A DNA stretch of 63,862 bases, the filler included. It is 5 parts of 5 records of this genome, joined end to end, with 100 filler letters (N's around TTAATTAATTAA, not from the genome) between each part and the next. Parts side by side here need not be neighbours in the genome. Positions count along the whole stretch, not along the records: positions 1 to 11,325 come from SRR22947727_235; 4 more parts are not named here. One strand, written 5' to 3'. Made by a program: the position numbers and the translations under genes. The notes below the pieces were generated by a model. The model saw nothing but the letters and a program-made list of their open reading frames with translations, was not told the origin of the DNA and did not search any database. Shown in pieces: positions 1 through 11,325 of this stretch. The stretch's first letter is position 1. The number at the start of each line of letters is the position of its first letter.

Positions 1-185
1 TTCTTACTAGGTCTTTGATCTCTCATTGTTTTGTGTCTCATGAAACTAAATTCATCAGTATAAGCTTTAATCATCTTATTAACTGGCCCCTCGATTACGC
101 CTAGCATCTTTGGAACTTTGACTCCTTTAACATCTTCAATGACTGTCTTTGTGTAAAACTTCAAACCATATTTTTTATAGTCCAC
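1..185 (-). CDS. hypothetical protein of the mobile element (partial, runs off window edge)
   Basis: Not in the ORF track. AGGAGG RBS at the end of the prim-pol gene, GTG at 185, open frame MDYKKYGLKFYTKTVIEDVKGVKVPKMLGVIEGP... to position 1. Confidence 0.7.
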   Translation of the reverse strand, partial: MDYKKYGLKFYTKTVIEDVKGVKVPKMLGVIEGPVNKMIKAYTDEFSFMRHKTMRDQRPSK

Positions 186-187
186 TT

Positions 188-2287
188 CTAATTACCTCCT
201 CTCTTACTATCATGGTAAAATGGAACATAAGCTCTGCCAAGATCTCCAGCTTCCATTGCCATATATTTATCGTGATCCCTCAAGATCCATACTGTCGCCC
301 GATCTGCAACTGTAGTAATTGGTATTTGCTTTCTGCATCTTGCACCAAGTAACTCTAAAGCATTTGCAACTTCTCTTTCCCTAGTTACACGCAGGCGCTT
401 CTCAATTTTTAAGAATTCAAACAGCTCAACTGTTGTAAGCATATCCCGATCAAATGGGTGCACACCTTGCTCAAACTGCTCTCTAATAAAGTCATTTAAA
501 GGTCTATCTGCCATTCCTGACATTTGATTTCTATACTCTGTGTATGGTGCAACTGCTAAAGGATTGAATTTACTTAGATCTCTATTCAATAAATCAGCCA
601 AAACACCACCAGCAAGATTGTCATTTAATCTCTCATTATGGAACTGTTCCAACATTTTTTGATTTCTTTTTGCAGGACTGAAATATACCCAATACCTCAC
701 TTCATTTTTTGGAAGTGGGAAAGCATCTTTATAGTTTGTATTGATCCAATAATTAGTAATGGTGTCTTGCTCTGAATATTCTTTATACAGTTGTCTAACA
801 CCTATAGATCCCTCACTAATAATCGTTTTTAGAGTATTTATCAGTTGAGCTTTCTCACTCCAACTACCTGAACTCTTTGCTTCATCAATTAGAACTGTTT
901 GGTAATTTAATAAATAATTTTTACCTTTATCTAATGCTTCTGCTAACTCAATCTTTCTAGTGTTGTGATTACCCAACATATCTCTATGCAGGTCAAACAA
1001 ACTTCCTTTACCTAGCTGAAATTCATCTGATTGCATAATGATTGCATGTCTAATTTTAACACCAGGATTTTGTATTGGGTATGAATACCAATCTAAAAAA
1101 TGTTCTCTACATTCCTCATGTGGTATTACATGTTTTAACAAAGCCCAGAATATATCTGTATCTACTTTTGGATCTGGTTGTAGGTCATTCTTCTCATATA
1201 CATTTATCATGAGCTTTTTGTCTACATGCACAAATCTATTTGGATCATTTGGCTTATAAGTAAAATCTACACAAACCTTACTATCAGGGTGCATCTTCCA
1301 ATATTTTAATGGAGTATATTTGCTATTGAAGTGTTTAGCATATTTAACATCAATACTCTCTCCGTCGTACATCTCCTTATCCTCAAGATCATAGTATTTT
1401 TTTTGTTTCATCATGTAAGCAATTCTATTTACAAAATCATGAGTAAAAGTTGGTAAAGCACTTCGACCTGTTACAGCATATAAAGCATCTTTTAGATTAC
1501 TTATTTGCTTCTCAGTCCATTTTAAAGCTGTTGCAAGAGTTGGGAGTCCTACAATTTCTTTTTGTGGAGTATCAGATTTATAAACATGTTTAGCTTTTGC
1601 TAATCTACTATTTACTTCCTCATCATTTGCAGCATTACAAACTACTTCAATAATTTTTAATGCATCATCTTCATCAACTTTGTGGTGCCATAAAGTACCA
1701 GCAACTTGCCAGATATAAACATTCCTATCTCCAGTTGGATAGTTACGAAGTATAATTGAAGCTACTGCTAACATTGCAACAGATTTATACAGAGCATCAT
1801 AAGTAGTTTCTTTTATGGAACTGTAGTCAGTCCACTGTACATATTCTTCTTCTGCATATTTACCAGCACACATAGAGTAATGATCATGAGCTCTAAGCTC
1901 TACCAGTGTTTCTTTATCAATGTTTGGATCTTCAAAACTAAAAAATTTACGAGTATGCTTCTTAGTTAGATCTATAACTTTAAACAACCAATGTGATTGT
2001 GGATTACTTTGCCTACCATATTTCATATTAGTTGCAGGCAAGAAGTATGGAGCTAATTTAATGGCTTCAATACAGTCTAAATCAATATCAACAATGTTAT
2101 TGTCTCCAGTGATGATGTGATAATTTTTATATTCATCAACATCATCTACTGAATTAATTATTTGCTTACGTCTTTTTAACCAACTGGCTTTGACAGTTTT
2201 AGTTCCATAGTCATATGCAAATACAGTTACATTTGCAGTGATAAGAGCTGATAATGCTTCTTTATTTAACTTCAAAGGCTCCTGCAT
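188..2287 (-). CDS. bifunctional AEP primase-polymerase / PriCT-like domain / SF3 (NrS-1/DUF5906-type) helicase
   Basis: N-terminal AEP motifs DIDLD, SHWLF and ELR; helical PriCT-like segment (GDRNVYIWQVAGTLW...); C-terminal Walker A-like QLGKGS, Walker B VLIDE and motif C INTN. Confidence 0.85.
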   Translation of the reverse strand: MQEPLKLNKEALSALITANVTVFAYDYGTKTVKASWLKRRKQIINSVDDVDEYKNYHIITGDNNIVDIDLDCIEAIKLAPYFLPATNMKYGRQSNPQSHWLFKVIDLTKKHTRKFFSFEDPNIDKETLVELRAHDHYSMCAGKYAEEEYVQWTDYSSIKETTYDALYKSVAMLAVASIILRNYPTGDRNVYIWQVAGTLWHHKVDEDDALKIIEVVCNAANDEEVNSRLAKAKHVYKSDTPQKEIVGLPTLATALKWTEKQISNLKDALYAVTGRSALPTFTHDFVNRIAYMMKQKKYYDLEDKEMYDGESIDVKYAKHFNSKYTPLKYWKMHPDSKVCVDFTYKPNDPNRFVHVDKKLMINVYEKNDLQPDPKVDTDIFWALLKHVIPHEECREHFLDWYSYPIQNPGVKIRHAIIMQSDEFQLGKGSLFDLHRDMLGNHNTRKIELAEALDKGKNYLLNYQTVLIDEAKSSGSWSEKAQLINTLKTIISEGSIGVRQLYKEYSEQDTITNYWINTNYKDAFPLPKNEVRYWVYFSPAKRNQKMLEQFHNERLNDNLAGGVLADLLNRDLSKFNPLAVAPYTEYRNQMSGMADRPLNDFIREQFEQGVHPFDRDMLTTVELFEFLKIEKRLRVTREREVANALELLGARCRKQIPITTVADRATVWILRDHDKYMAMEAGDLGRAYVPFYHDSKRGGN

Positions 2288-2685
2288 TACTTCTCCCCCT
2301 TACCAAGTGACATCCGTAATAGTCGATTAACTAAAGCTCTTTCATCAGAGCTCAAACTATCAATAGTTATATCTTTATCAAATGATCCGCTTAGATTTTT
2401 TTCTTTAGGTTTGATGTCTTTATACTTCGTAAGATCTATCGGGAACTGGATAATCTTTCCACCTCCTGCATAACTTAAACGTTTGAAGTAATCATCATCT
2501 TTAGAATTTAACCAAGCATCAAATGACATATCTGGTGCTTCTTCTAAATGTATCAACTTCAAAGTGTTTAATATATCTTCATCATTATCAAATTTTAAGT
2601 CTACGACATCTTTCTTTGCTAGTTTATCTAACTCAGTTTTTGTTAATGTATTATTAGTGCTTTCAACATTGTTTTTAGTTTGCAT
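2287..2685 (-). CDS. hypothetical protein (phage/satellite-like)
   Basis: 132 aa; GGAGG RBS; overlaps both neighbours in operon fashion; no recognisable motif. Confidence 0.7.
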   Translation of the reverse strand: MQTKNNVESTNNTLTKTELDKLAKKDVVDLKFDNDEDILNTLKLIHLEEAPDMSFDAWLNSKDDDYFKRLSYAGGGKIIQFPIDLTKYKDIKPKEKNLSGSFDKDITIDSLSSDERALVNRLLRMSLGKGEK

Positions 2686-3109
2686 TATTGTTTACCTCCT
2701 CTCTTGCCAATAAAATGCTTTCTTTTAGCTCAGCAACTTCATCAATTTTTTGAGAGATAACATCTTCTGCAGTCTCCAACTCATGCTCTAATTTCATGAT
2801 TGTTGCTTTCTGATTATTAAGACGTTCAACTGCATCTTTTTTAACATGGTCAAGCTCTAGCTTTTCTTTTGTTCTATTATTTTCACTTGCCAGAATTGCA
2901 TTACCAAGATCTTGAATAACGTTAGCTTGTTTTACTACTAACCCTTTCAGAGCTTTATAATCTACTCGGCCATGTTCACATGTTGTATTTGCGTCTCTTT
3001 TACTTTGAGGTCTTATCCAAAACCACTTCTCCATAATCTTTCTTATTGTTGGACTATGGCTAAATGACTCCCAATAACTTTGTTTAACTTTCAGCTTTGA
3101 TTTACTCAT
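2675..3109 (-). CDS. hypothetical coiled-coil protein (phage/satellite-like)
   Basis: 144 aa; heptad-rich C-terminal half; GGAGG RBS; TAATG stop/start coupling with the upstream gene. Confidence 0.7.
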   Translation of the reverse strand: MSKSKLKVKQSYWESFSHSPTIRKIMEKWFWIRPQSKRDANTTCEHGRVDYKALKGLVVKQANVIQDLGNAILASENNRTKEKLELDHVKKDAVERLNNQKATIMKLEHELETAEDVISQKIDEVAELKESILLAREEVNNNAN

Positions 3110-3333
3110 TATTTACCCTCCAACAATTTAGTCAGCTCAGGTGGTAACGAGATATCAATATTCATTGGCTCACTCTTAGCTTTAAAATCAAACTCTAATT
3201 GTTTCGGTTTGGTTTTTTTAACTATTGCTGGTTTCAAATAATTCTCCAGCTCTTGTCTTTCCTTATGGGTGTGATCATCATATTTTAATGATGCTGCAAC
3301 TATCTGTCTGTTCATATCAAAAGGTCTACTCAT
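3109..3333 (-). CDS. hypothetical protein; start revised to MSRPFDMN
   Basis: GGAGG (3340-3344) lies 6 nt upstream of ATG 3333, which overlaps the end of the upstream gene. Confidence 0.65.
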   Translation of the reverse strand: MSRPFDMNRQIVAASLKYDDHTHKERQELENYLKPAIVKKTKPKQLEFDFKAKSEPMNIDISLPPELTKLLEGK

Positions 3334-3682
3334 CATCAGCCTCCGTATTTTGGAATGGAACTTCAATGCCATTTTCTTTTGCAATTTCTTCTAACTTGCA
3401 AATTTTTCCCCATGCAACTTCATCAACTTTATCTGCAATCTTTTTGCCACGAGCACGAGACTCATGAATTTCAAAGTCTTTCAACTTTCTATTATTGCTG
3501 TTGCTGTTTGGGTATTTAGTAAAAGCTTCGTCAAGGTTTCTAACTGCTCTACGTAACTCTTGTCTTACCACTCTCATCATGTGGTGGTAACCCTTTACTA
3601 CTTTTGCATATTGTTCTTGTGATATAGATCTATCGCTATTGTGACCAAGTCTCACAATATTATCTTTTCTTTTTGGTTCCAT
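3326..3682 (-). CDS. hypothetical protein, first large gene of the element operon
   Basis: 118 aa; AGGAG RBS at 3691-3695. Confidence 0.7.
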   Translation of the reverse strand: MEPKRKDNIVRLGHNSDRSISQEQYAKVVKGYHHMMRVVRQELRRAVRNLDEAFTKYPNSNSNNRKLKDFEIHESRARGKKIADKVDEVAWGKICKLEEIAKENGIEVPFQNTEADDE

Positions 3683-3697
3683 GGTTAGGACTCCTGT

Positions 3698-4187
3698 AAA
3701 TTATGCAACATCCTACCGGGTGGTTAGTCCGGTAGTTGTTACGTTATAATTTCATCAGGCTAAAAATGGATCGATGAAAGCTGTAATAGTTTGAACTTGA
3801 GGGAAGATTAGGATTATGGTGGCCACCGTTAATCCCATGAATTCTGTTGTGATATTCAAAGTCTAATCCTCTTTCTATAAATATACTCATCATATTAACC
3901 TTTTTTAAGCCTGTTATTTTAAAACCGTGGAATTGTTTTCTGAGCTAAATTCTCAAACGCTCATTCTATTACTAAATGGCTTTCGGGCATCAATCATGAG
4001 CAACTTACGTATGTTAAGCTAGACCGAATAAGGTTAGATCCCTTGTCAGCATAAGTTTCAATCAAAACCCTATTAGAAAACTAATGCTCTAGTTACTTAT
4101 GCCTAAGCAACATGTACATATATAACATTTATATTTTATGTTTCAAGATTGGGAGAATATAGGAGACATAATTGAGTCACATTCTCC
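3698..4187 (-). ncRNA. candidate structured leader / ncRNA upstream of the replication operon
   Basis: Many inverted-repeat stems, e.g. CTACCGG 3713-3719/CCGGTAG 3729-3735, GATTAG 3806-3811/CTAATC 3863-3868, GCTCAT 3959-3964/ATGAGC 3996-4001, GCATAAGT 4049-4056/ACTTATGC 4095-4102, GGAGAAT 4152-4158/ATTCTCC 4181-4187. Confidence 0.45.
3755..3859 (-). CDS. candidate 34-aa hydrophobic peptide
   Basis: GAGGA SD 7 nt before TTG; MNITTEFMGLTVATIILIFPQVQTITAFIDPFLA*. Confidence 0.35.
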   Translation of the reverse strand: MNITTEFMGLTVATIILIFPQVQTITAFIDPFLA

Positions 4188-4306
4188 TTAAATTAGTGAG
4201 TCGTTTAGCCACTTATTTTAGATGTTTGTGAAATTAATAATTATTAAAAATTATGATTAAAAAAGCCTGAGGCGTGACTAGTGATGCTCAATCAATACCG
4301 TTTTGT

Positions 4307-4465
4307 CTATTTTCTATTTCTAGTTTTGTTATTTAAACGTTCACCATATTCTCTTATTTTTTGGTGTTCTTTTTGCTGAATTTGTTTTTTTTTCCTAATC
4401 TTTAAAACAAAAAGAATAATGAGGATTAGTAATAAAATACCAATACTTAATAATATTATATTCAC
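4307..4465 (-). CDS. candidate 52-aa single-pass membrane protein
   Basis: GTG start; MNIILLSIGILLLILIILFVLKIRKKKQIQQKEHQKIREYGERLNNKTRNRK*: a TM helix followed by a basic tail. Confidence 0.5.
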   Translation of the reverse strand: MNIILLSIGILLLILIILFVLKIRKKKQIQQKEHQKIREYGERLNNKTRNRK

Positions 4466-4741
4466 TGATTTGAAAGATATAAAGCTATTGCTAATAAAAT
4501 ATCTATAATAATTAATACTTCCACATTTAATCTTTCTTATTAATTTCTTCCTCAGTCAAAAAAAAACTAAGTGAGTCAACTCGATCTATCTCATCATAAT
4601 TTTTTATAAAATTTTTTTGCCTTTCAATAAAGTAATTTAATATTTTTTAGGGGAATGTTTTCAGGACAACATCACAACTATGTTCGAGACACTGTGTCGC
4701 TAACCAAGGGCAGAAACACACTTTTACAATCGACAACTAAC

Positions 4742-5926
4742 TCAAGCGATTTCAAACAACGCTGCGGCCCCCATGCCTCCGCCAACACACATGGAGGTCA
4801 CCACATATTTTACGCCACGACGCCTCCCCTCAAGCAGAACGTGCCCAACTTGTCTCGCGCCCGTCATGCCGTAGGGGTGGCCAATCGAAATGGCGCCGCC
4901 ATTCACGTTGTAGATTTCGGGATCGATCCCAAGATGGTCGCGGCAATACAGAACCTGGCAAGCAAAGGCTTCGTTAAGCTCCCAAAGGCCGATGTCTTCG
5001 ATCCGGAGACCTGCATTCTTCAGCAGCTTTGGAATTGCAAAGATCGGGCCGACCCCCATCTCTTCCGGTGCGTTTCCTGCAACTGCCATACCGCGATAGA
5101 TACCTAGCGGTCTGAGGCCCTGCTGCTCAGCCATCTTGCCTTCCATGAGCACACAAGCCGAGGCCCCGTCAGAAAGTTGGCTTGCGTTTCCGGCCGTGAT
5201 CACGCCGCCTTCGACAACCGGATTCAACTGGCCAAGTGTTTCGGCCGTCGAACCCGGCCGATTGCCTTCGTCTTTTGACAAGGTCACCTCTTCCTGGGTT
5301 TCCTCTTCGGTTTCACGGTTCTTGACCCGCTTTATCGCATTGATCGGGACGATCTCGTCTTCAAAGACGCCAGCTGCCTTTGCATGTGCAGTTCGTTCCT
5401 GCGACAGTGCTGCGTATTCATCCTGGGCGTCACGGCTTATCCCATAGGTCCGAGCCACATTTTCTGCCGTCATCAGCATCGGCATATAGGCATGCTCAGA
5501 TTGGGCGATAACGTTTGGATCTTTCTCATCGCCCGCCCATTTCAGATAGGCATTCTGCAGGGCGGAAATATTCTCCTGCCCGCCAGCCACGGCAACGTTC
5601 TGACCATCCACGATGATCTGCTTTGCAGCCGTCGCAATGGCCATCAACCCAGAGGAGCATTGTCTATCGATCGTCTGTCCTGCCACCGTATTGGGAAGGC
5701 CCGCAGCCAGCGCCGACAAACGAGCGACATTCATGCCTGCTGTTCCCGCAGTCAGGACCGATCCGATGACAACATCTTCGATCAAACCGGGGTCCACGCC
5801 TGCACGTTCAACCGCGTGCTGAATGGCGTGCCCCATCATGGTAGGGGACTTGATGTTGTTCAGCGCACCTTTGAAGGCAACCCCAATGGGGGTTCGTGCG
5901 GTTGAGACGATAACGGCTTTTCTCAT
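4742..5926 (-). CDS. acetyl-CoA C-acyltransferase (thiolase)
   Basis: RQCSSG catalytic Cys, NEAF, GHPYG and MCVGGGMG motifs. Confidence 0.97.
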   Translation of the reverse strand: MRKAVIVSTARTPIGVAFKGALNNIKSPTMMGHAIQHAVERAGVDPGLIEDVVIGSVLTAGTAGMNVARLSALAAGLPNTVAGQTIDRQCSSGLMAIATAAKQIIVDGQNVAVAGGQENISALQNAYLKWAGDEKDPNVIAQSEHAYMPMLMTAENVARTYGISRDAQDEYAALSQERTAHAKAAGVFEDEIVPINAIKRVKNRETEEETQEEVTLSKDEGNRPGSTAETLGQLNPVVEGGVITAGNASQLSDGASACVLMEGKMAEQQGLRPLGIYRGMAVAGNAPEEMGVGPIFAIPKLLKNAGLRIEDIGLWELNEAFACQVLYCRDHLGIDPEIYNVNGGAISIGHPYGMTGARQVGHVLLEGRRRGVKYVVTSMCVGGGMGAAALFEIA

Positions 5927-8043
5927 GATTTTTCCTTTTTGGCATCAAAATGTGCGTCAAGTGTCACGCCCGAGGTTGCAAGTTGTTCCAGCAAAGGCGC
6001 AGGCGTGAACCACATCTCACCATAGGCACCTAGCGACTGCCGATAGTGGGTCATGCGTTCCAAAATCTGACTTAATCCAATCTCGTCAGCATAGTGCATT
6101 GGGCCGCCGCGCCAGTTTGGGAAGCCATAGCCATTGACCCAGATCAGGTCGCAATCACCCGGGCGCGTTGCAATTTCCTCTTCAAGGATCAAGAAGCCCT
6201 CGTTGATCAGGGGGAAAAGACAACGCTCAAGGATTTCCTGATCGTCGATTTCCCTGCGCTTCACGCCATGAAAGTCCGCCAAATGGGCACTGATTTGAAC
6301 AATCTCTGGGTCTTCGACCCGTGTCCGCCCCTCGTAGACATAGCTTCCTCGCCCGGTTTTCTGACCCAGTCGGCCTAGTTCAAACAACCTGTCCTGCACA
6401 GCCTGGTATGTCGGGTCATGCGCGATTTCACTACGCCGTTCCTGGCGCACGCGTGCGCCCACATCGACTCCGGCCAGATCTGCCATCGCATGAATACCCA
6501 TGGCCATGCCGAAGCCTTCAAGGACGTCATCCACCTGTTTCGGCGTCGCCCCCTCTAGAAGCAGACGGGATCCTTCGCGGAAGTATGGTTCCAGCATCCG
6601 GTTTCCAACAAAGCCGTAGCACACGCCAACCGTGACAGGGAGCTTTCGGATCTTCTTTGCGACCGTGATTGCCGTTGCAATGACATCGGGAGCGGTCTTG
6701 GCGCCGCGCACCACCTCCAGCAAGCGCATGACATTGGCCGGGCTGAAGAAATGGAGACCAATCACATCCTCCGGACGGGATGTGACTGCGGCGATTTCAT
6801 CAAGATCCAATGTCGATGTGTTTGAGGCCAGTATCGCGCCAGGTTTTGCGTGTCGGTCTAGGGCTTCAAAAATCTGGCGTTTGACATCCATGCTTTCAAA
6901 CGCCGCTTCAATGATGAGGTCGGCCTCTGCAAGGTCGCCGTAGCTGAGCGTCCCGGTGGCGTTGGCGGCAATTGCCTCTGCCCGATCGGCACTGAGCCGA
7001 CCTTTTTGGCTCGCGCGCTGGAAATGCTCTCGGACCTTTTCCAGTCCCAGTTCCAGCGCGCCTTGCGCAGTTTCCAGAAGAATGACCGGATACCCAGCCT
7101 GAAGAAAAGCGATGGCAATGCCACGACCCATTGTTCCGGCACCAATCACGGCGACCGATGTAATGTCACGTGGCTGATCCGCACGGGTAACACCCGGAAT
7201 CTTTGTGCATTCACGCTCTGCAAAGAACAGGTGACGCCCCGCGCGCGATTGAGGTGTGTCGAGCAGTTCGGCGAAACCTGCCTTCTCTTGTGCCAACCCC
7301 TCGGCCAGCGGCATTTCGCACGCGGCCTCGATCGACACCAAACATCGTTCAGGGGCGACAAGGTTTTTGGACGTGTGCGCTATCTGGTCTCGGAAACTCG
7401 TCAGATATCCCTTCGGATCAGAGTGTGTGACGGTCATATCCATGCAATTGCGCCTCAGACCGCCCTCTTGGATTACACGGGTGGCGAAGCCCAAAACATG
7501 CGCGCGAAAATCCTGGTCGTTCTCAAGCAGCGCGTCGACCAGCCCACAAGACAGGGCATATTCGCCTTTCACGGGATCACCGGAAAGGATCATTTGCGTC
7601 GCCGCTTCCAGCCCGGCAATCCGTGGCAGCCTTTGGGTCCCCCCGGCGCCTGGCAACAGCCCCAGCTTGATCTCTGGCAGCCCCATCACTGCGTCCGGCG
7701 TGGCGACACGGTAATCACAGGCAAGCGCGATCTCCAGCGCACCACCCATCGCAGGGCCTGCAATTGCCGCGATAACAGGAGTCCGGCAGGTTTCAATCGT
7801 GACACACAGCTCTGGAAGGTCCGGCTTGTCCCATAGTGCGCCTGTGCTAAACTCGACAATATCAGCGCCGCCGCAAAAGAGCGGCAGGGCCGAGCATAGA
7901 ACGATCGCTTTGACCTGTTCATCGGCATCCAACTCGTGAATGGCGCTCAATAACGCCTGCCGCATCTTCAGGCTAAGAGCATTCACTGGCGGGGCATTCA
8001 GCTCAATGAAAGCGAAGCCCTCGGTGTGTTTAATGGAAATCAT
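5923..8043 (-). CDS. enoyl-CoA hydratase / 3-hydroxyacyl-CoA dehydrogenase (FadB/FadJ-like multifunctional enzyme)
   Basis: Crotonase motifs (GGALEIALACDYR, PEIKLGLLPGAGGTQRLPR), Rossmann GAGTMG, SNTS, HFFSPA. Start moved to ATG 8043 (GAGG SD, directly after the upstream stop). Confidence 0.95.
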   Translation of the reverse strand: MISIKHTEGFAFIELNAPPVNALSLKMRQALLSAIHELDADEQVKAIVLCSALPLFCGGADIVEFSTGALWDKPDLPELCVTIETCRTPVIAAIAGPAMGGALEIALACDYRVATPDAVMGLPEIKLGLLPGAGGTQRLPRIAGLEAATQMILSGDPVKGEYALSCGLVDALLENDQDFRAHVLGFATRVIQEGGLRRNCMDMTVTHSDPKGYLTSFRDQIAHTSKNLVAPERCLVSIEAACEMPLAEGLAQEKAGFAELLDTPQSRAGRHLFFAERECTKIPGVTRADQPRDITSVAVIGAGTMGRGIAIAFLQAGYPVILLETAQGALELGLEKVREHFQRASQKGRLSADRAEAIAANATGTLSYGDLAEADLIIEAAFESMDVKRQIFEALDRHAKPGAILASNTSTLDLDEIAAVTSRPEDVIGLHFFSPANVMRLLEVVRGAKTAPDVIATAITVAKKIRKLPVTVGVCYGFVGNRMLEPYFREGSRLLLEGATPKQVDDVLEGFGMAMGIHAMADLAGVDVGARVRQERRSEIAHDPTYQAVQDRLFELGRLGQKTGRGSYVYEGRTRVEDPEIVQISAHLADFHGVKRREIDDQEILERCLFPLINEGFLILEEEIATRPGDCDLIWVNGYGFPNWRGGPMHYADEIGLSQILERMTHYRQSLGAYGEMWFTPAPLLEQLATSGVTLDAHFDAKKEKS

Positions 8044-8044
8044 G

Positions 8045-8740
8045 TCAGGAAACCTCAATAGGTTGTTTGGCAAGATCCTGTTCGATCTCTGCCCAGTCGT
8101 CGAAATGGATTACATTGCAGGGTGAATTCACGTTTTCGAGCCATACAAAAACGGAGATGAATGGCGGGTCATATACTCGAGTGGCGTGGGGGGCGCCCGG
8201 CTCGTTCCAGATTAGAGATCCAGCCGGATAATCCTTCCATTCATGAGTGCCAAACCGCCAACCAGATTTCTCTGACAAGTTCACATATAACTCTGGCGCA
8301 TCGTGGTTGTGGTCGCGATATAGCGTCCTTGGGCCCAGCATGAAAATGCCAAGACTGAAATCGGGATGGTGATGACCGCATGCATCTGGTCCGATGAGTA
8401 GGGTATGCAAGTTACATTTTGTGTATCCCTCTCCTAGATCGGCACCGGGGGGGTAGAATTGTGCGTTGTCCTCTCGCCAGACCAGATCGTTCTGGGCGGC
8501 TTTCAGGCAGTCTGAGATTTCCTGCAATTCGGGAGCGACAATCCCCTCGATAGCATTCTTTAGAACCGCATCATGTCGGGTTCCCTGTGGAGGTAAGTCA
8601 ATGAGCCTCTCGTTTGATAGATCCATGGCTGCCAGCTTGTTTAACGCCAGTTCAACGCCCTGCACGGTCGCTTTACGAGCTTCCAAATAGTGGACAATGG
8701 ACCGAATAAGCGCCTGAATGCGACGTTGTTTGTTTGTCAT
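8045..8740 (-). CDS. DMSP-lyase-family cupin (DddQ/DddL-like)
   Basis: Cupin motifs YRDHNHDAPELY and PAGSLIWNEPGAPHATRV...PFISVFVW match the pattern of DddQ/DddL-type lyases; substrate not proven. Confidence 0.8.
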   Translation of the reverse strand: MTNKQRRIQALIRSIVHYLEARKATVQGVELALNKLAAMDLSNERLIDLPPQGTRHDAVLKNAIEGIVAPELQEISDCLKAAQNDLVWREDNAQFYPPGADLGEGYTKCNLHTLLIGPDACGHHHPDFSLGIFMLGPRTLYRDHNHDAPELYVNLSEKSGWRFGTHEWKDYPAGSLIWNEPGAPHATRVYDPPFISVFVWLENVNSPCNVIHFDDWAEIEQDLAKQPIEVS

Positions 8741-10341
8741 GATTTTAAATCCAGGCGAGTTAAAACGTCTTGACGCACGAGTTTCTTATCCAGCTTGCCG
8801 ACACTTGTTTTAGGAAGGTGGTCGACAAAGATTATTTCGTCTGGAATTGCCCATTTTGAGATCTCGCCTACGTCGACACGCATCTGAATTTCTTCCACTA
8901 TATTCAAGCGCACGAGATCCCGGTCTGTATTATTTTTGATTTGAACAGCCAAAACTGGCCTTTCGCCCCATTTCGCGTTTGGGCATCCAATAGCTGCCAC
9001 CTCCTCAACACCGTAGCAAGACGATGCTATGTTTTCCAATATCAATGAAGATATCCATTCGCCGCCAGTCTTAATCACGTCCTTGAGTCGGTCAGTAATC
9101 TGCAAAGATCCATTCTCGCGGATATACCCAACATCCCCAGTATGCAGATACCCACCGTCCCAAAGGTCATTCGAGGCTTGCGGATTATCCAGATAGCCTT
9201 GTGTCAACCAGGGAGCCCGCGCAACAACTTCGCCCGTTGTTTCACCGTCATGCGGAACGTCTTTCATATCCGGTGTCACAACGCGGATGTCGACAAGAGG
9301 ACCGGAAAACCCCGTTTGCGACTGCACCTCCGGATCATTACTGGACAAATCAGCCACTGTCAGAAACGGACAGGTTTCAGACATCCCATATGCTGCATGC
9401 ACCGAAATACCTGCCGCCGCAGCGCGATCCTGCAGATCGCGCGGCAAAGCAGCCCCGCCAATGATCACTTTCCATCTGTGCAGGTCAATTTGTGGGCAAT
9501 CCGGATGGTCGAGCACCATTGATAGAACCGTGGGCACGCAGTGGGAAAAAGTGACATTTTCGTCTACAATCAACCGCAAGATTGTGTCAGGGTCATATCG
9601 ACCGGGATAGACCTGACGTAGCCCCAGCATCGTTGCGGCATAAGGAAACCCCCAACCGTGGACATGAAACAAGGGAGTCAGCGGCATGTATACGTCGCCG
9701 CGATGAAATCCGGCATTCCCGGGCCACGCGCCAAAACCAGCAATCAGGCCCAACGTGTGAAGGACCAACTGCCGATGTGAATAGCTCACCCCCTTGGGAT
9801 TGCCGGTGGTCCCGGTTGTGTAAAACAAGGTTGCGGCATGGTTTTCATCGAAGTCCGGGAAGTCAAACCTTTCCGGTGACTCGCCTATCCACTCTTCATA
9901 ACCTTCACCTTCTCCAATCGGCATAATGATGATATTCCGCTCAAAACCCGATTTGATATCATCAATGAGTGGCATGAAATCGCTGTGTACGATAATCAGA
10001 TCCGGTTTGCCGTGGTTGATAGTATAAAGAACTTGGGCAGGAGATAGACGGATGTTGATCGTAAAAAGGGTTGCACCCATCATAGGGACCGCGAAAAAAC
10101 ATTCAAGATATCGGCTTGTATCCCAATCTATGACACCGATGCGCATGCCCTCAAATATCCCACTGGCCTTCAGAGAATGAGCAAGTTGGTGCACACGTTT
10201 CTCAAACGCCTCATAGCTCAATCGAATACCTGCGCCGTTGACAATCTCCTGACGAGCGCAAGCCCTATTTGAGCTGGTCAACAGGTGCTTGATTAGCAAC
10301 GGATGGTCATATGCATCTGATGCAGGCGACAATATCGGCAT
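8737..10341 (-). CDS. medium-chain acyl-CoA ligase (AlkK/DmdB-like ANL enzyme)
   Basis: YTTGTTGNPKG, YGMSET, YLHTGD and PKTSVGKLDK motifs; AAGGA SD. Confidence 0.93.
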   Translation of the reverse strand: MPILSPASDAYDHPLLIKHLLTSSNRACARQEIVNGAGIRLSYEAFEKRVHQLAHSLKASGIFEGMRIGVIDWDTSRYLECFFAVPMMGATLFTINIRLSPAQVLYTINHGKPDLIIVHSDFMPLIDDIKSGFERNIIIMPIGEGEGYEEWIGESPERFDFPDFDENHAATLFYTTGTTGNPKGVSYSHRQLVLHTLGLIAGFGAWPGNAGFHRGDVYMPLTPLFHVHGWGFPYAATMLGLRQVYPGRYDPDTILRLIVDENVTFSHCVPTVLSMVLDHPDCPQIDLHRWKVIIGGAALPRDLQDRAAAAGISVHAAYGMSETCPFLTVADLSSNDPEVQSQTGFSGPLVDIRVVTPDMKDVPHDGETTGEVVARAPWLTQGYLDNPQASNDLWDGGYLHTGDVGYIRENGSLQITDRLKDVIKTGGEWISSLILENIASSCYGVEEVAAIGCPNAKWGERPVLAVQIKNNTDRDLVRLNIVEEIQMRVDVGEISKWAIPDEIIFVDHLPKTSVGKLDKKLVRQDVLTRLDLKS

Positions 10342-10494
10342 CTAGGTCAAATCCTTACAATTTTATGTCTCAACTCTGGCATTTCATAGATTTTTTACAA
10401 GTGAAAAAATTTTACAATCATTAAAAAAAATTCAAGGGATTTATTGAACTGAATGTGTTGTGATTAATTATTATAAACTATTAAGAGGAAAATA

Positions 10495-11325
10495 ATGAAA
10501 ATAATTAAAAAAATAGTAATTTCTTCATTAGCTGTCTTAAGTTTCACTTTATTTACTGGTGTTGCTAATGCTGCATGTGGAAAGATTACAATAGCTAACA
10601 TGAACTGGGCATCAGCAAATTTCATGGCTGAAGTTGACAAAATAATTTTAGAAAAAGGTTATGGATGTGAAGTTGAGCTAGTTCCAGGTGCAACTATGCC
10701 TACATTTACATCAATGCAAGAAAAAGGTGAGCCAGATGTAGCTCCTGAGTTTTGGGCAAATGTTGCAATCGTTGCTTTGAACAAAGCAGTAGATGAAGGC
10801 AAAATGCACTCTGTCAACAAAGCTCCAATTACTGGATTGGGTGAAGGTTGGTTTATATTACCTGCAACTTTAGAAAAACATCCAGAGCTTACAACTGCAG
10901 ATGCAGTTTTAAAAAGACCTGATCTATTTCCACATCCAGAAGATCCTTCAAAAGGTGGATTTCATATCTGTCCTCCAGGATGGAACTGTGAACTAAGTAA
11001 CAGAAACCATTTTAGAGCTTGGGGTATGGAAGAAAAAGGATGGATGATTGTAGAAACAGGTTCGGCTGCTGGATTAGATGGTTCAGTAGCTAAAGCTGCT
11101 GAAAGAGGTGAAAACTGGTTTGGATATTACTGGTCACCAACTGCTCTAATCGGTAAATATAATTTGCAAGCTGTAGATATGGGTGAATTTGCTGGAAAAG
11201 ATAACTGGGATAAATGTATAGTTTTACCAGAACAAGAATGTGCTGATCCAAAAAAATCTTCATGGGTAAAATCTGAAGTTTTCACAATTACAACTGATAA
11301 CTTTATGAAAACAGCTGGTAAAGAT
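10495..11325 (+). CDS. glycine betaine/onium-compound ABC transporter substrate-binding protein (ProX/OpuAC family), 3'-truncated by linker
   Basis: Signal peptide; MNWASA, YGCEVELVPG, PEFWAN, CPPGWNC and GYYWSP motifs; GAGGA SD. Confidence 0.9.

Follow-up and report, generated by a model that had tools for sequence, protein, structure and literature searches.

A candidate cis-regulatory mRNA leader that may couple translation of the replication operon of a SAR11-type mobile element to an upstream open reading frame

The window analysed here is a stretch of 63,862 nucleotides (nt), made of parts of five records of one genome joined end to end. Positions 1 to ~4700 form an island of 30-39% G+C, flanked by host genes of 51-63% G+C, and the island carries a replication operon on the minus strand. 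The segment preceding this operon, ~430 nt from 3683 to about 4112 of the same strand, is probably (at a rough probability of 60%) a new cis-regulatory messenger RNA (mRNA) leader coupling translation of the replication operon to that of an upstream open reading frame (ORF). In the proposed mechanism, a sigma-70-type promoter would start the transcript, and ribosomes on the upstream ORF would unwind the final hairpin as well as the internal helices, so that the first operon gene could be initiated by translational coupling. Long-range loop pairing together with a 5' pseudoknot domain would set the access to both the ORF start site and the downstream site. The 5' domain would be an element-specific input module that binds RNA, protein or a small molecule. 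The coupling, the translation of the ORF, the transcription start and the input signal are presumed components of this scheme.

A structured leader upstream of the replication operon had been proposed by a first-pass annotation made from the letters of the window, and this proposal is upheld by the covariation, the asymmetry of the two strands and the conservation of the promoter. RNAfold gave a minimum free energy of -116.3 for the minus strand of 3683-4190 (z -2.99), reached by 1 of 100 shuffled sequences, whereas 40 of 100 shuffles were as good as the plus strand (z -0.21). Folding better than shuffled controls is thus a property of the minus strand and not of the plus strand. In eight homologous leaders, with 40 shuffles each, z ranged from -1.5 to -4.3 on the sense strand and from +0.2 to -3.0 on the antisense strand, the sense strand being the better folder in all eight. 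All stems listed by the annotation can be read in the sequence at the positions it gave. Its overall fold was, however, mostly replaced after comparison with 12 related leaders (alignment A2).

The compared leaders, designated class A, are homologous to that of the window and come from 12 further loci. Several helices are shifted in register by MAFFT, and an alignment-free test was used for this reason: the duplex energy of a sequence's own two strands (cognate) was set against that of strands from other sequences, with 5000 permutations. Realignment with a covariance model (R1/A4) was hardly better than MAFFT. The leader starts with the 5' hairpin H1 (4092-4108; GCTTA/TAAGT, loop GGCA), which folds at the same place in 11 of 11 leaders, its alignment register being too unstable for pair counts. 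In the next helix, P2 (4048-4088), AGCATTAGTTT (4078-4088) pairs with AAACTTATGCT (4048-4058) at a cognate energy of -7.7 kcal/mol versus -2.4 kcal/mol for non-cognate strands (0/5000 permutations). The P2 loop AATAGGGTT (4066-4074) pairs with AACCTTATT (4027-4035) to give the pseudoknot PK1 (4027-4074), with -8.0 versus -3.3 kcal/mol and again 0/5000. On either side of P2 are invariant motifs, AACTAGA (4088-4094) and GACAAGG (4041-4047); two conserved ones, CGGT (4023-4026) and ACGTAAG (4004-4010), come after PK1.

A variable A-rich linker separates the PK1 domain from a second pseudoknot-like pair (3930-3962), in which S1 (GAGC 3959-3962 with GCTC 3942-3945) is interleaved with S2 (GAATT 3948-3952 with AATTC 3930-3934). 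For S2, the cognate and non-cognate energies were -4.0 and -0.45 kcal/mol (0/5000); compensatory changes occur in 5/5 of its pairs, which are 94.7% paired. The leader ends in a long hairpin (3698-3752) with an outer stem of AAATTAT (3746-3752) and ATAATTT (3698-3704), a middle stem of GTAACA (3737-3742) and TGTTGC (3705-3710), an inner stem of CTACCGG (3729-3735) and CCGGTAG (3713-3719), and the conserved loop ACTAACCAC (3720-3728). Its cognate energy of -12.6 kcal/mol compares with -3.8 kcal/mol (0/5000), and seven of the eight counted pairs show compensatory changes at 97.8% pairing. The hairpin loop pairs with CGGTT (3923-3927), ~25 nt upstream of the upstream ORF start, and this pairing closes a loop around the ORF. 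It was supported at -4.2 versus -2.2 kcal/mol (0/5000, or 2/5000 with class B leaders added) and exists in three co-varying versions: GGTT/AACC, TTGATTA/TAATCAA and GACT/AGTC. Pairing of the H1 loop with a GCC/ATCAA segment downstream of PK1 was rejected, with inconsistent partner positions and -5.5 versus -4.7 kcal/mol (70/5000).

The counts from alignments agree with partner-specific covariation of the final hairpin, the long-range pair, P2, PK1 and S2. In A2, 25 pairs in stable columns are 96.9% paired versus 77.8% after shuffling (0/500; 31-42% for slid controls), and both partners have changed in 17 of them. Nine P2/PK1 pairs of alignment A4 are 95.3% paired versus 77.5% (0/500). RNAalifold alone produced 22 pairs, 15 of them compensatory. 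Wobble cells are strand-specific, with 14 G.U against 1 A.C. Taken with the covariation and the sense-strand folding, this asymmetry points to a structure formed by RNA, or at least by a single strand of sense polarity.

Among the stems noticed first, the hairpin of 3713-3735 with its outer stems, the TTTCATC/GATGAAA helix and the palindrome GGTGGCCACC are supported by the relatives. The stem TGAAT/ATTCA is present but never varies, so that it carries no covariation information. The junction-closing GATTAG/CTAATC, AAAAC/GTTTT, GCTCAT/ATGAGC, and GCATAAGT/ACTTATGC with its inner ATTAG/CTAAT are not conserved. These stems compete with the comparative fold, their strands overlapping those of P2, PK1, S1/S2 or the long-range pair.

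Of the proposed ~490-nt leader, 150 nt constitute a conserved upstream ORF, presumably translated, that the annotation missed. In the window, this ORF has 49 codons (3744-3893), with a Shine-Dalgarno (SD) sequence AAGG at 3899-3902, ATG at 3891-3893 and TAA at 3744-3746, the stop codon being located in the 5' arm of the final hairpin. The ORF contains the small hairpin hp1 (TGAAT 3854-3858 with ATTCA 3838-3842), the palindrome GGTGGCCACC (3818-3827), which is enclosed by GGATTA/TAATCC, and the helix of TTTCATC (3773-3779) with GATGAAA (3750-3756). An ATG-started ORF of 38-79 codons with a TTCATC-type helix was found in 19/19 leaders of all classes. In 10 leaders its stop precedes the next ATG by 36-79 nt and falls shortly ahead of the final hairpin or within it; in 8 the frame continues across the hairpin into the next gene, with an overlap of 26-40 nt; in 1/19 the next gene was not found by the script. 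The first operon gene has its SD 2 nt past the base of the hairpin. A ribosome translating the ORF up to its stop at the hairpin, or through it, must open the hairpin beside the downstream SD.

The preservation of an open frame with its SD and ATG in all 19 leaders, together with the motif E-Y-x-N-R-I-H-G-I common to the class-A peptides, could also mean that the ORF encodes a functional small protein and that the stems are by-products. This is very improbable in view of the substitutions. Single-base codon differences are 64 synonymous versus 382 non-synonymous, and the variable sites at codon positions 1, 2 and 3 number 21, 14 and 15 of 26, the third positions being no more variable than the others. 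Amino acids change while base pairs are kept, and the peptide has no match in Pfam or PHROG. Indels in the ORF alignment are multiples of three. Judging by these sequence comparisons, selection on the upstream ORF seems to be directed at an open, translated frame and at RNA structure rather than at the peptide.

The palindrome within the ORF shows the same behaviour. All four of its pairs have compensatory changes, and its codons specify varying amino acids (GGH, GGR, AGQ, RGH, GSY) without loss of the dyad symmetry. Nearly all versions are perfect to the centre, with cores GGCC, AGCT or TGCA. An RNA hairpin needs no self-complementary centre, and the palindrome could therefore be a DNA dyad or the loop of an RNA kissing dimer. 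The versions observed in relatives are GGTGGCCACC, GGCGGCCGCC, GCTGGCCAGC, CGTGGCCACG and GGTAGCTACC. A second type of upstream ORF carries its own palindrome, CACTTGCAAGTG or CACTAGCTAGTG. The palindrome of locus L007 is one base off (GGTGGCCACT, a G.U pair still being allowed), and L026 is an exception.

A 10-12 bp palindrome perfect to its centre would suit a second explanation, in which the hairpins act as DNA and the RNA fold is incidental. They would serve as a replication origin, as a site where the primase initiates on single-stranded DNA, or as dyads bound by protein. The encoded primase-helicase and the occurrence of relatives as tandem or circular repeats (L062, 6344 nt; L078, 6966 nt) point the same way. 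No iterons or tandem repeats were found in 3600-4200, however, and the excess of G.U over A.C, the pseudoknots and the long-range loop pairing speak against it, as does the conservation of a promoter, an SD and an open frame around the structure. Action as DNA is accordingly regarded as improbable, and the hairpin-rich origin suggested by the first-pass annotation is not favoured.

The transcript of the proposed mRNA leader would begin at a minus-strand promoter (4119-4146) composed of the -35 element TTGAAA (4141-4146), a 16-nt spacer and the extended -10 element TGTTATATA (4119-4127). Its position and sequence are kept in all aligned leaders of every class, the -10 having the form TGnTATAT(A/G). 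A simple consensus scan does not pick up this conserved promoter. The -35 TTGAAA suggested earlier is conserved, and the -10, then described as weak, is a conserved extended one. The predicted transcription start, based on the promoter sequence, is at about 4110-4113.

The leader belongs to no known Rfam family, as had been anticipated. Rfam 15 yielded 0 matches for the whole window at gathering thresholds, and a search of 3600-4400 at E up to 10 gave none in the leader and two junk matches outside it. This bears on a refinement of the coupling mechanism in which the 5' pseudoknot domain would be a sensor, either a riboswitch-like aptamer or a site for a protein of the element or of a helper phage, and the ORF with the hairpin would be the expression platform; the sensor would turn the operon on at the time for the element to replicate. 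The invariant single-stranded AACTAGA, GACAAGG, CGGT and ACGTAAG between covarying helices are the usual signature of a binding pocket, and at least three further unrelated 5' domains are present on near-identical elements. No Rfam aptamer is matched, however, no metabolic gene is controlled, and the swapping of unrelated domains argues against one common ligand. A sensor of this kind seems unlikely.

The swapping itself was observed at loci whose primases are 87-95% identical to that of the window. Their blastn similarity to the window's leader region is limited to 4115-4285; past the same promoter they have other 5' domains with covarying hairpins (e.g. CAGG/CCTG, CAAG/CTTG, GGGTTT/AAACCC), followed by the same upstream-ORF type or by the second type. 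At least three further structured 5' domains, mutually unrelated, follow this promoter; such domains are located at L019 3200-3310, L025 1350-1510, L031 3100-3290 and L005 3940-4070 and in L049 and L026. Each of them may be a new RNA motif. Only tRNAs exceeded the Rfam threshold in seven class-B loci, and none of these other 5' domains had an Rfam match. Unrelated folds on near-identical elements point to a function in specificity, such as immunity, incompatibility or induction. This makes the RNA-based immunity mentioned in the first-pass annotation plausible.

In satellite P4, the primase-operon leader is processed to give the immunity CI RNA, and seqA, seqB and seqC boxes are involved. An analogous mechanism here would have part of the leader processed into a stable trans-acting RNA that pairs with nascent leader transcripts, those of its own element or of incoming ones, and shuts the operon off. 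The satellite-like element with a primase operon is consistent with it, as are the 5' domains swapped as modules, which would be expected of an immunity determinant, and one RNA library (X16) in which only 3775-4017 of the island is seen, at a depth of 17.9. That fragment, however, misses the swapped 5' domain. Rfam, known phage and satellite regulatory RNAs included, gives no match; no terminator-like site was found in 3300-4800 by a consensus scan that is blind to Rho-dependent sites. The conserved leader motifs have one copy each in the island, and the single long-range loop pairing provides the only complementary boxes found. P4-like immunity is therefore doubtful, and the attenuation by CI RNA to which the leader had been compared is not supported. 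As in P4, a satellite-type element has a long structured leader before its primase operon, and the leader region behaves as a specificity module; the difference, apart from an Rfam match, a terminator-like site and repeated boxes, none of which was found, is that here the upstream ORF is central.

A more general and tentative possibility, still rather unlikely, is a modular switch. Interchangeable, unrelated pseudoknotted 5' domains of at least four classes would be sensors or immunity determinants, and a common platform would gate replication, consisting of an ORF that is translated with its peptide irrelevant, the palindromic hairpin and the long-range pairing. The signal would then be a helper phage, the host, or the RNA of a sibling element. 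If true, some of the ocean's most abundant bacteria would harbour a new kind of induction or incompatibility control based on RNA.

Expression of the leader is hinted at, weakly, by contigs from three RNA libraries of two studies. Besides the X16 fragment, contigs of X14 cover 3288-4195 and those of X15 cover 3552-3732 and 3837-4184. No evidential weight is given to the gap that X14 and X15 show at 4196-4299.

Several observations weigh against the proposed coupling of the operon to the upstream ORF. The RNA contigs give neither strand nor ends nor level, may stem from DNA carry-over, and in X14 and X15 run beyond the predicted start, to 4184-4195. Neither the terminator-like site sought above nor an antisense promoter inside the leader was detected, the latter by a crude consensus scan; the sole plus-strand promoter-like site of the scan (4228-4257) is outside the leader. 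The modelled accessibility of the SD and AUG with and without a ribosome at the ORF end was inconsistent among nine leaders. S1 is weaker than the other helices (86/5000 permutations) and breaks in L037, L032 and L030. The versions of the long-range pair go back to about three independent changes, which are distributed by clade, and U.G pairs may close the loop in class B. The permutation tests ignore phylogeny and were based on ~10 distinct full-length class-A sequences. Finally, the gene directly downstream of the leader encodes a helical protein of 118 amino acids (aa) without an assigned role, not the primase.

The closest known parallel is found in enterobacterial plasmids. The IncI1 plasmid ColIb-P9 has the leader peptide repY and the antisense Inc RNA. 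For IncI1 and IncB/O plasmids, a published account describes rep translation that is coupled to a leader peptide, needs a pseudoknot and is blocked by an antisense RNA (PMC8053102). The likeness consists in a leader ORF upstream of or overlapping the controlled gene (the ORF being present in 19/19 leaders here), a hairpin loop that pairs with a distant segment, and a mobile replicon whose replication genes are under control. The differences are considerable. Here the hairpin adjoins the downstream SD and its partner is upstream of the leader ORF, which is the reversed geometry; the ORF has 38-79 codons, and there is an extra double-pseudoknot 5' domain of ~200 nt. Furthermore, the consensus scan turned up no antisense gene, the operon's first gene is not the initiator, and there is no sequence or Rfam relationship.

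H-type pseudoknot riboswitch aptamers, such as SAM-II/SAM-V and preQ1-II, also have a hairpin loop that pairs downstream, as well as conserved unpaired nucleotides. This is a resemblance only: no Rfam match was obtained here even at E up to 10, and the leader precedes the replication operon of a mobile element.

Elements with an integrase and a primase/helicase, packaged as concatemers, have been described in Pelagibacter in the available portions of two papers (PMC9618062, PMC11876622), in which such SAR11 elements are characterised by named proteins only. The words 'noncoding' and 'intergenic' are absent from the main text of PMC9618062. No such leader is described in the accessible portions of the literature on SAR11 satellites, on virion-encapsidated integrative mobile elements (VEIMEs) and tycheposons, or on Pelagibacter RNA motifs. 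The elements considered here are similar to the VEIMEs and the marine integrative elements of Pelagibacter that resemble tycheposons and phage-inducible chromosomal islands in their repeat units of ~6-7 kb (L062, L078), primase-helicase, tRNA neighbours and SAR11 hosts, with an integrase in relatives. A difference is that the primase of the window had no relative in a search of IMG/VR. Small integrase and primase elements make up a large share of the mobilome of SAR11 and of the surface ocean, and a covarying leader of ~430 nt is a testable handle on the replication control of SAR11-type elements. It is also a candidate addition to the few replication controls with a leader peptide and pseudoknot, mainly of enterobacterial plasmids, and a clean case of overlapping constraints from RNA structure and reading frame.

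All genes of the island are on the minus strand. The controlled operon (188-3682) consists of ORFs of 118, 91, 144 and 132 aa followed by the 699-aa primase-helicase (188-2287; DUF5906, E 5e-07; PHROG DNA primase, E 4.6e-26), and this gene order is matched by synteny in relatives. The first gene (3326-3682) has the SD AGGAG at 3691-3695 and ATG at 3680-3682, as read in the sequence. Assigning a function to its product was abandoned, the search having provided only one Pfam match under the cut-off and helical-hairpin look-alikes. The element is probably a 5-7 kb low-G+C integrative element of a kind found mostly in SAR11 (Pelagibacteraceae) genomes. The window copy resides in a host of 55% G+C and is without an integrase; it has the primase, and the tyrosine integrase and tRNA neighbours were seen in relatives. 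No integrase remnant was detected in 4150-4800 by tblastn (E > 0.2), and a search for terminal inverted repeats of the island returned only 14-mers at chance level.

The island adjoins a thiolase gene (4742-5926), followed by genes for a FadB-like protein, a protein of the dimethylsulfoniopropionate (DMSP) lyase family and an acyl-CoA ligase. The junction of island and host is real, because a single contig of 13,369 nt from an organism-labelled run crosses it, spanning window 1-6000 with one difference. Metagenome contigs L015 and L029 are 100% identical to window 3301-5200, the thiolase junction included. Every sampled word of 3300-5000 was found in 13 DNA-type runs from 10 studies, the source sample possibly being among them. 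Two of the runs labelled 'aquatic viral metagenome' (X10, X11) contain all of 3300-5000 with the host thiolase junction; island-bearing host DNA therefore gets into the virus-size fraction.

Between the element terminus and the thiolase stop codon lie 456 nt (4286-4741) of 21-28% G+C with an ORF for a membrane-like protein of 52 aa (4307-4465). Among the loci compared, this segment has relatives only in L015 and L029, both identical to the window. Past the left end of the window, L029 continues (7100-10633) with tRNA-Val, tRNA-Asp and nuoA-D at ~30% G+C, which are SAR11-like. The near side of the island in L029 is thus the host of 55% G+C and the far side is SAR11-like. The contig of the organism-labelled run ends within tRNA-Val. 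Most likely, the two-sided context of L029 is either a chimeric join at the tRNA or one element in two very different hosts. An identity of 10 nt between the final-hairpin loop and the 5' end of the neighbouring tRNA-Val was judged to be chance.

The search with the primase matched 334 metagenome stretches, the best 80 of which (79 loci) were used. Relatives of the primase were also found in 14 genome contigs, nearly all from single-cell or isolate genomes of Pelagibacteraceae, and a sample of this family had them in 5 of 401 genomes, with nothing new. The usual layout in relatives is a tyrosine integrase, a gap of 250-550 nt, the small ORF, small operon genes and the primase. A covariance model of the 5' domain had 14 matches among 86 sources, all in class-A loci. 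The R1 covariance model matched 0 of 151 Pelagibacteraceae-family genomes, a sample without a positive control. The primase search of IMG/VR revealed no relative, and distant blastn of 3683-4740 against a phage record collection gave no match. A 15-mer pattern scan of IMG/VR produced 116 loci, none of which matched the hidden Markov model of the leader, and these were dropped as chance matches. The leader occurs twice per contig in L062 (at ~123 and 6468, period 6344) and L078 (2871 and 9837, period 6966), so that these elements were assembled as circles or tandem concatemers, an arrangement that marine phage satellites are reported to have. The Sulfitobacter-labelled contig L014, of ~60% G+C, ends (6001-6225) in a 225-nt mid-primase piece of 35% G+C; this piece either was joined on by chimeric assembly or is a remnant.

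Upstream of the promoter there is a conserved DNA block (4153-4285, minus strand) that is not part of the RNA and owes its conservation to other causes. It includes an imperfect inverted repeat, GACTCAC (4196-4202) and GTGACTC (4174-4180), and direct repeats of TCTCC. The pair GGAGAAT/ATTCTCC (4152-4187), first noted as an RNA stem, is located in this region, before the promoter; six loci lack it (L005, L006, L017, L031, L065 and L003). The block is 85-89% identical in loci with an otherwise unrelated leader and is matched by nhmmer as well. Its outer edge (about 4265-4287) is the terminus common to the integrase-less copies, which include those of the window, L017, L019, L025, L026, L034 and L006. 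In these loci the terminus reads CACTAG.CACGCCTCAGGC, plus ~15 nt resembling the end of the integrase gene, and the block directly adjoins unrelated host genes (PhoU/PhoB, amidase, aldehyde dehydrogenase, hydrolase, nuclease and YgjP; thiolase in the window). The same terminus beside varied host genes suggests that integrase-less derivatives have still moved to many sites. The block motif GACTCACT (window 4196-4202) recurs in the AT-rich stretch by the thiolase gene (window about 4565-4578). The copies of this motif could be protein-binding sites or element ends, at a match length that is at chance level. In L029 it is located at 2711, 3086 and 3110 on the plus strand and, inverted, at 7565 on the minus strand, between the primase and tRNA-Val.

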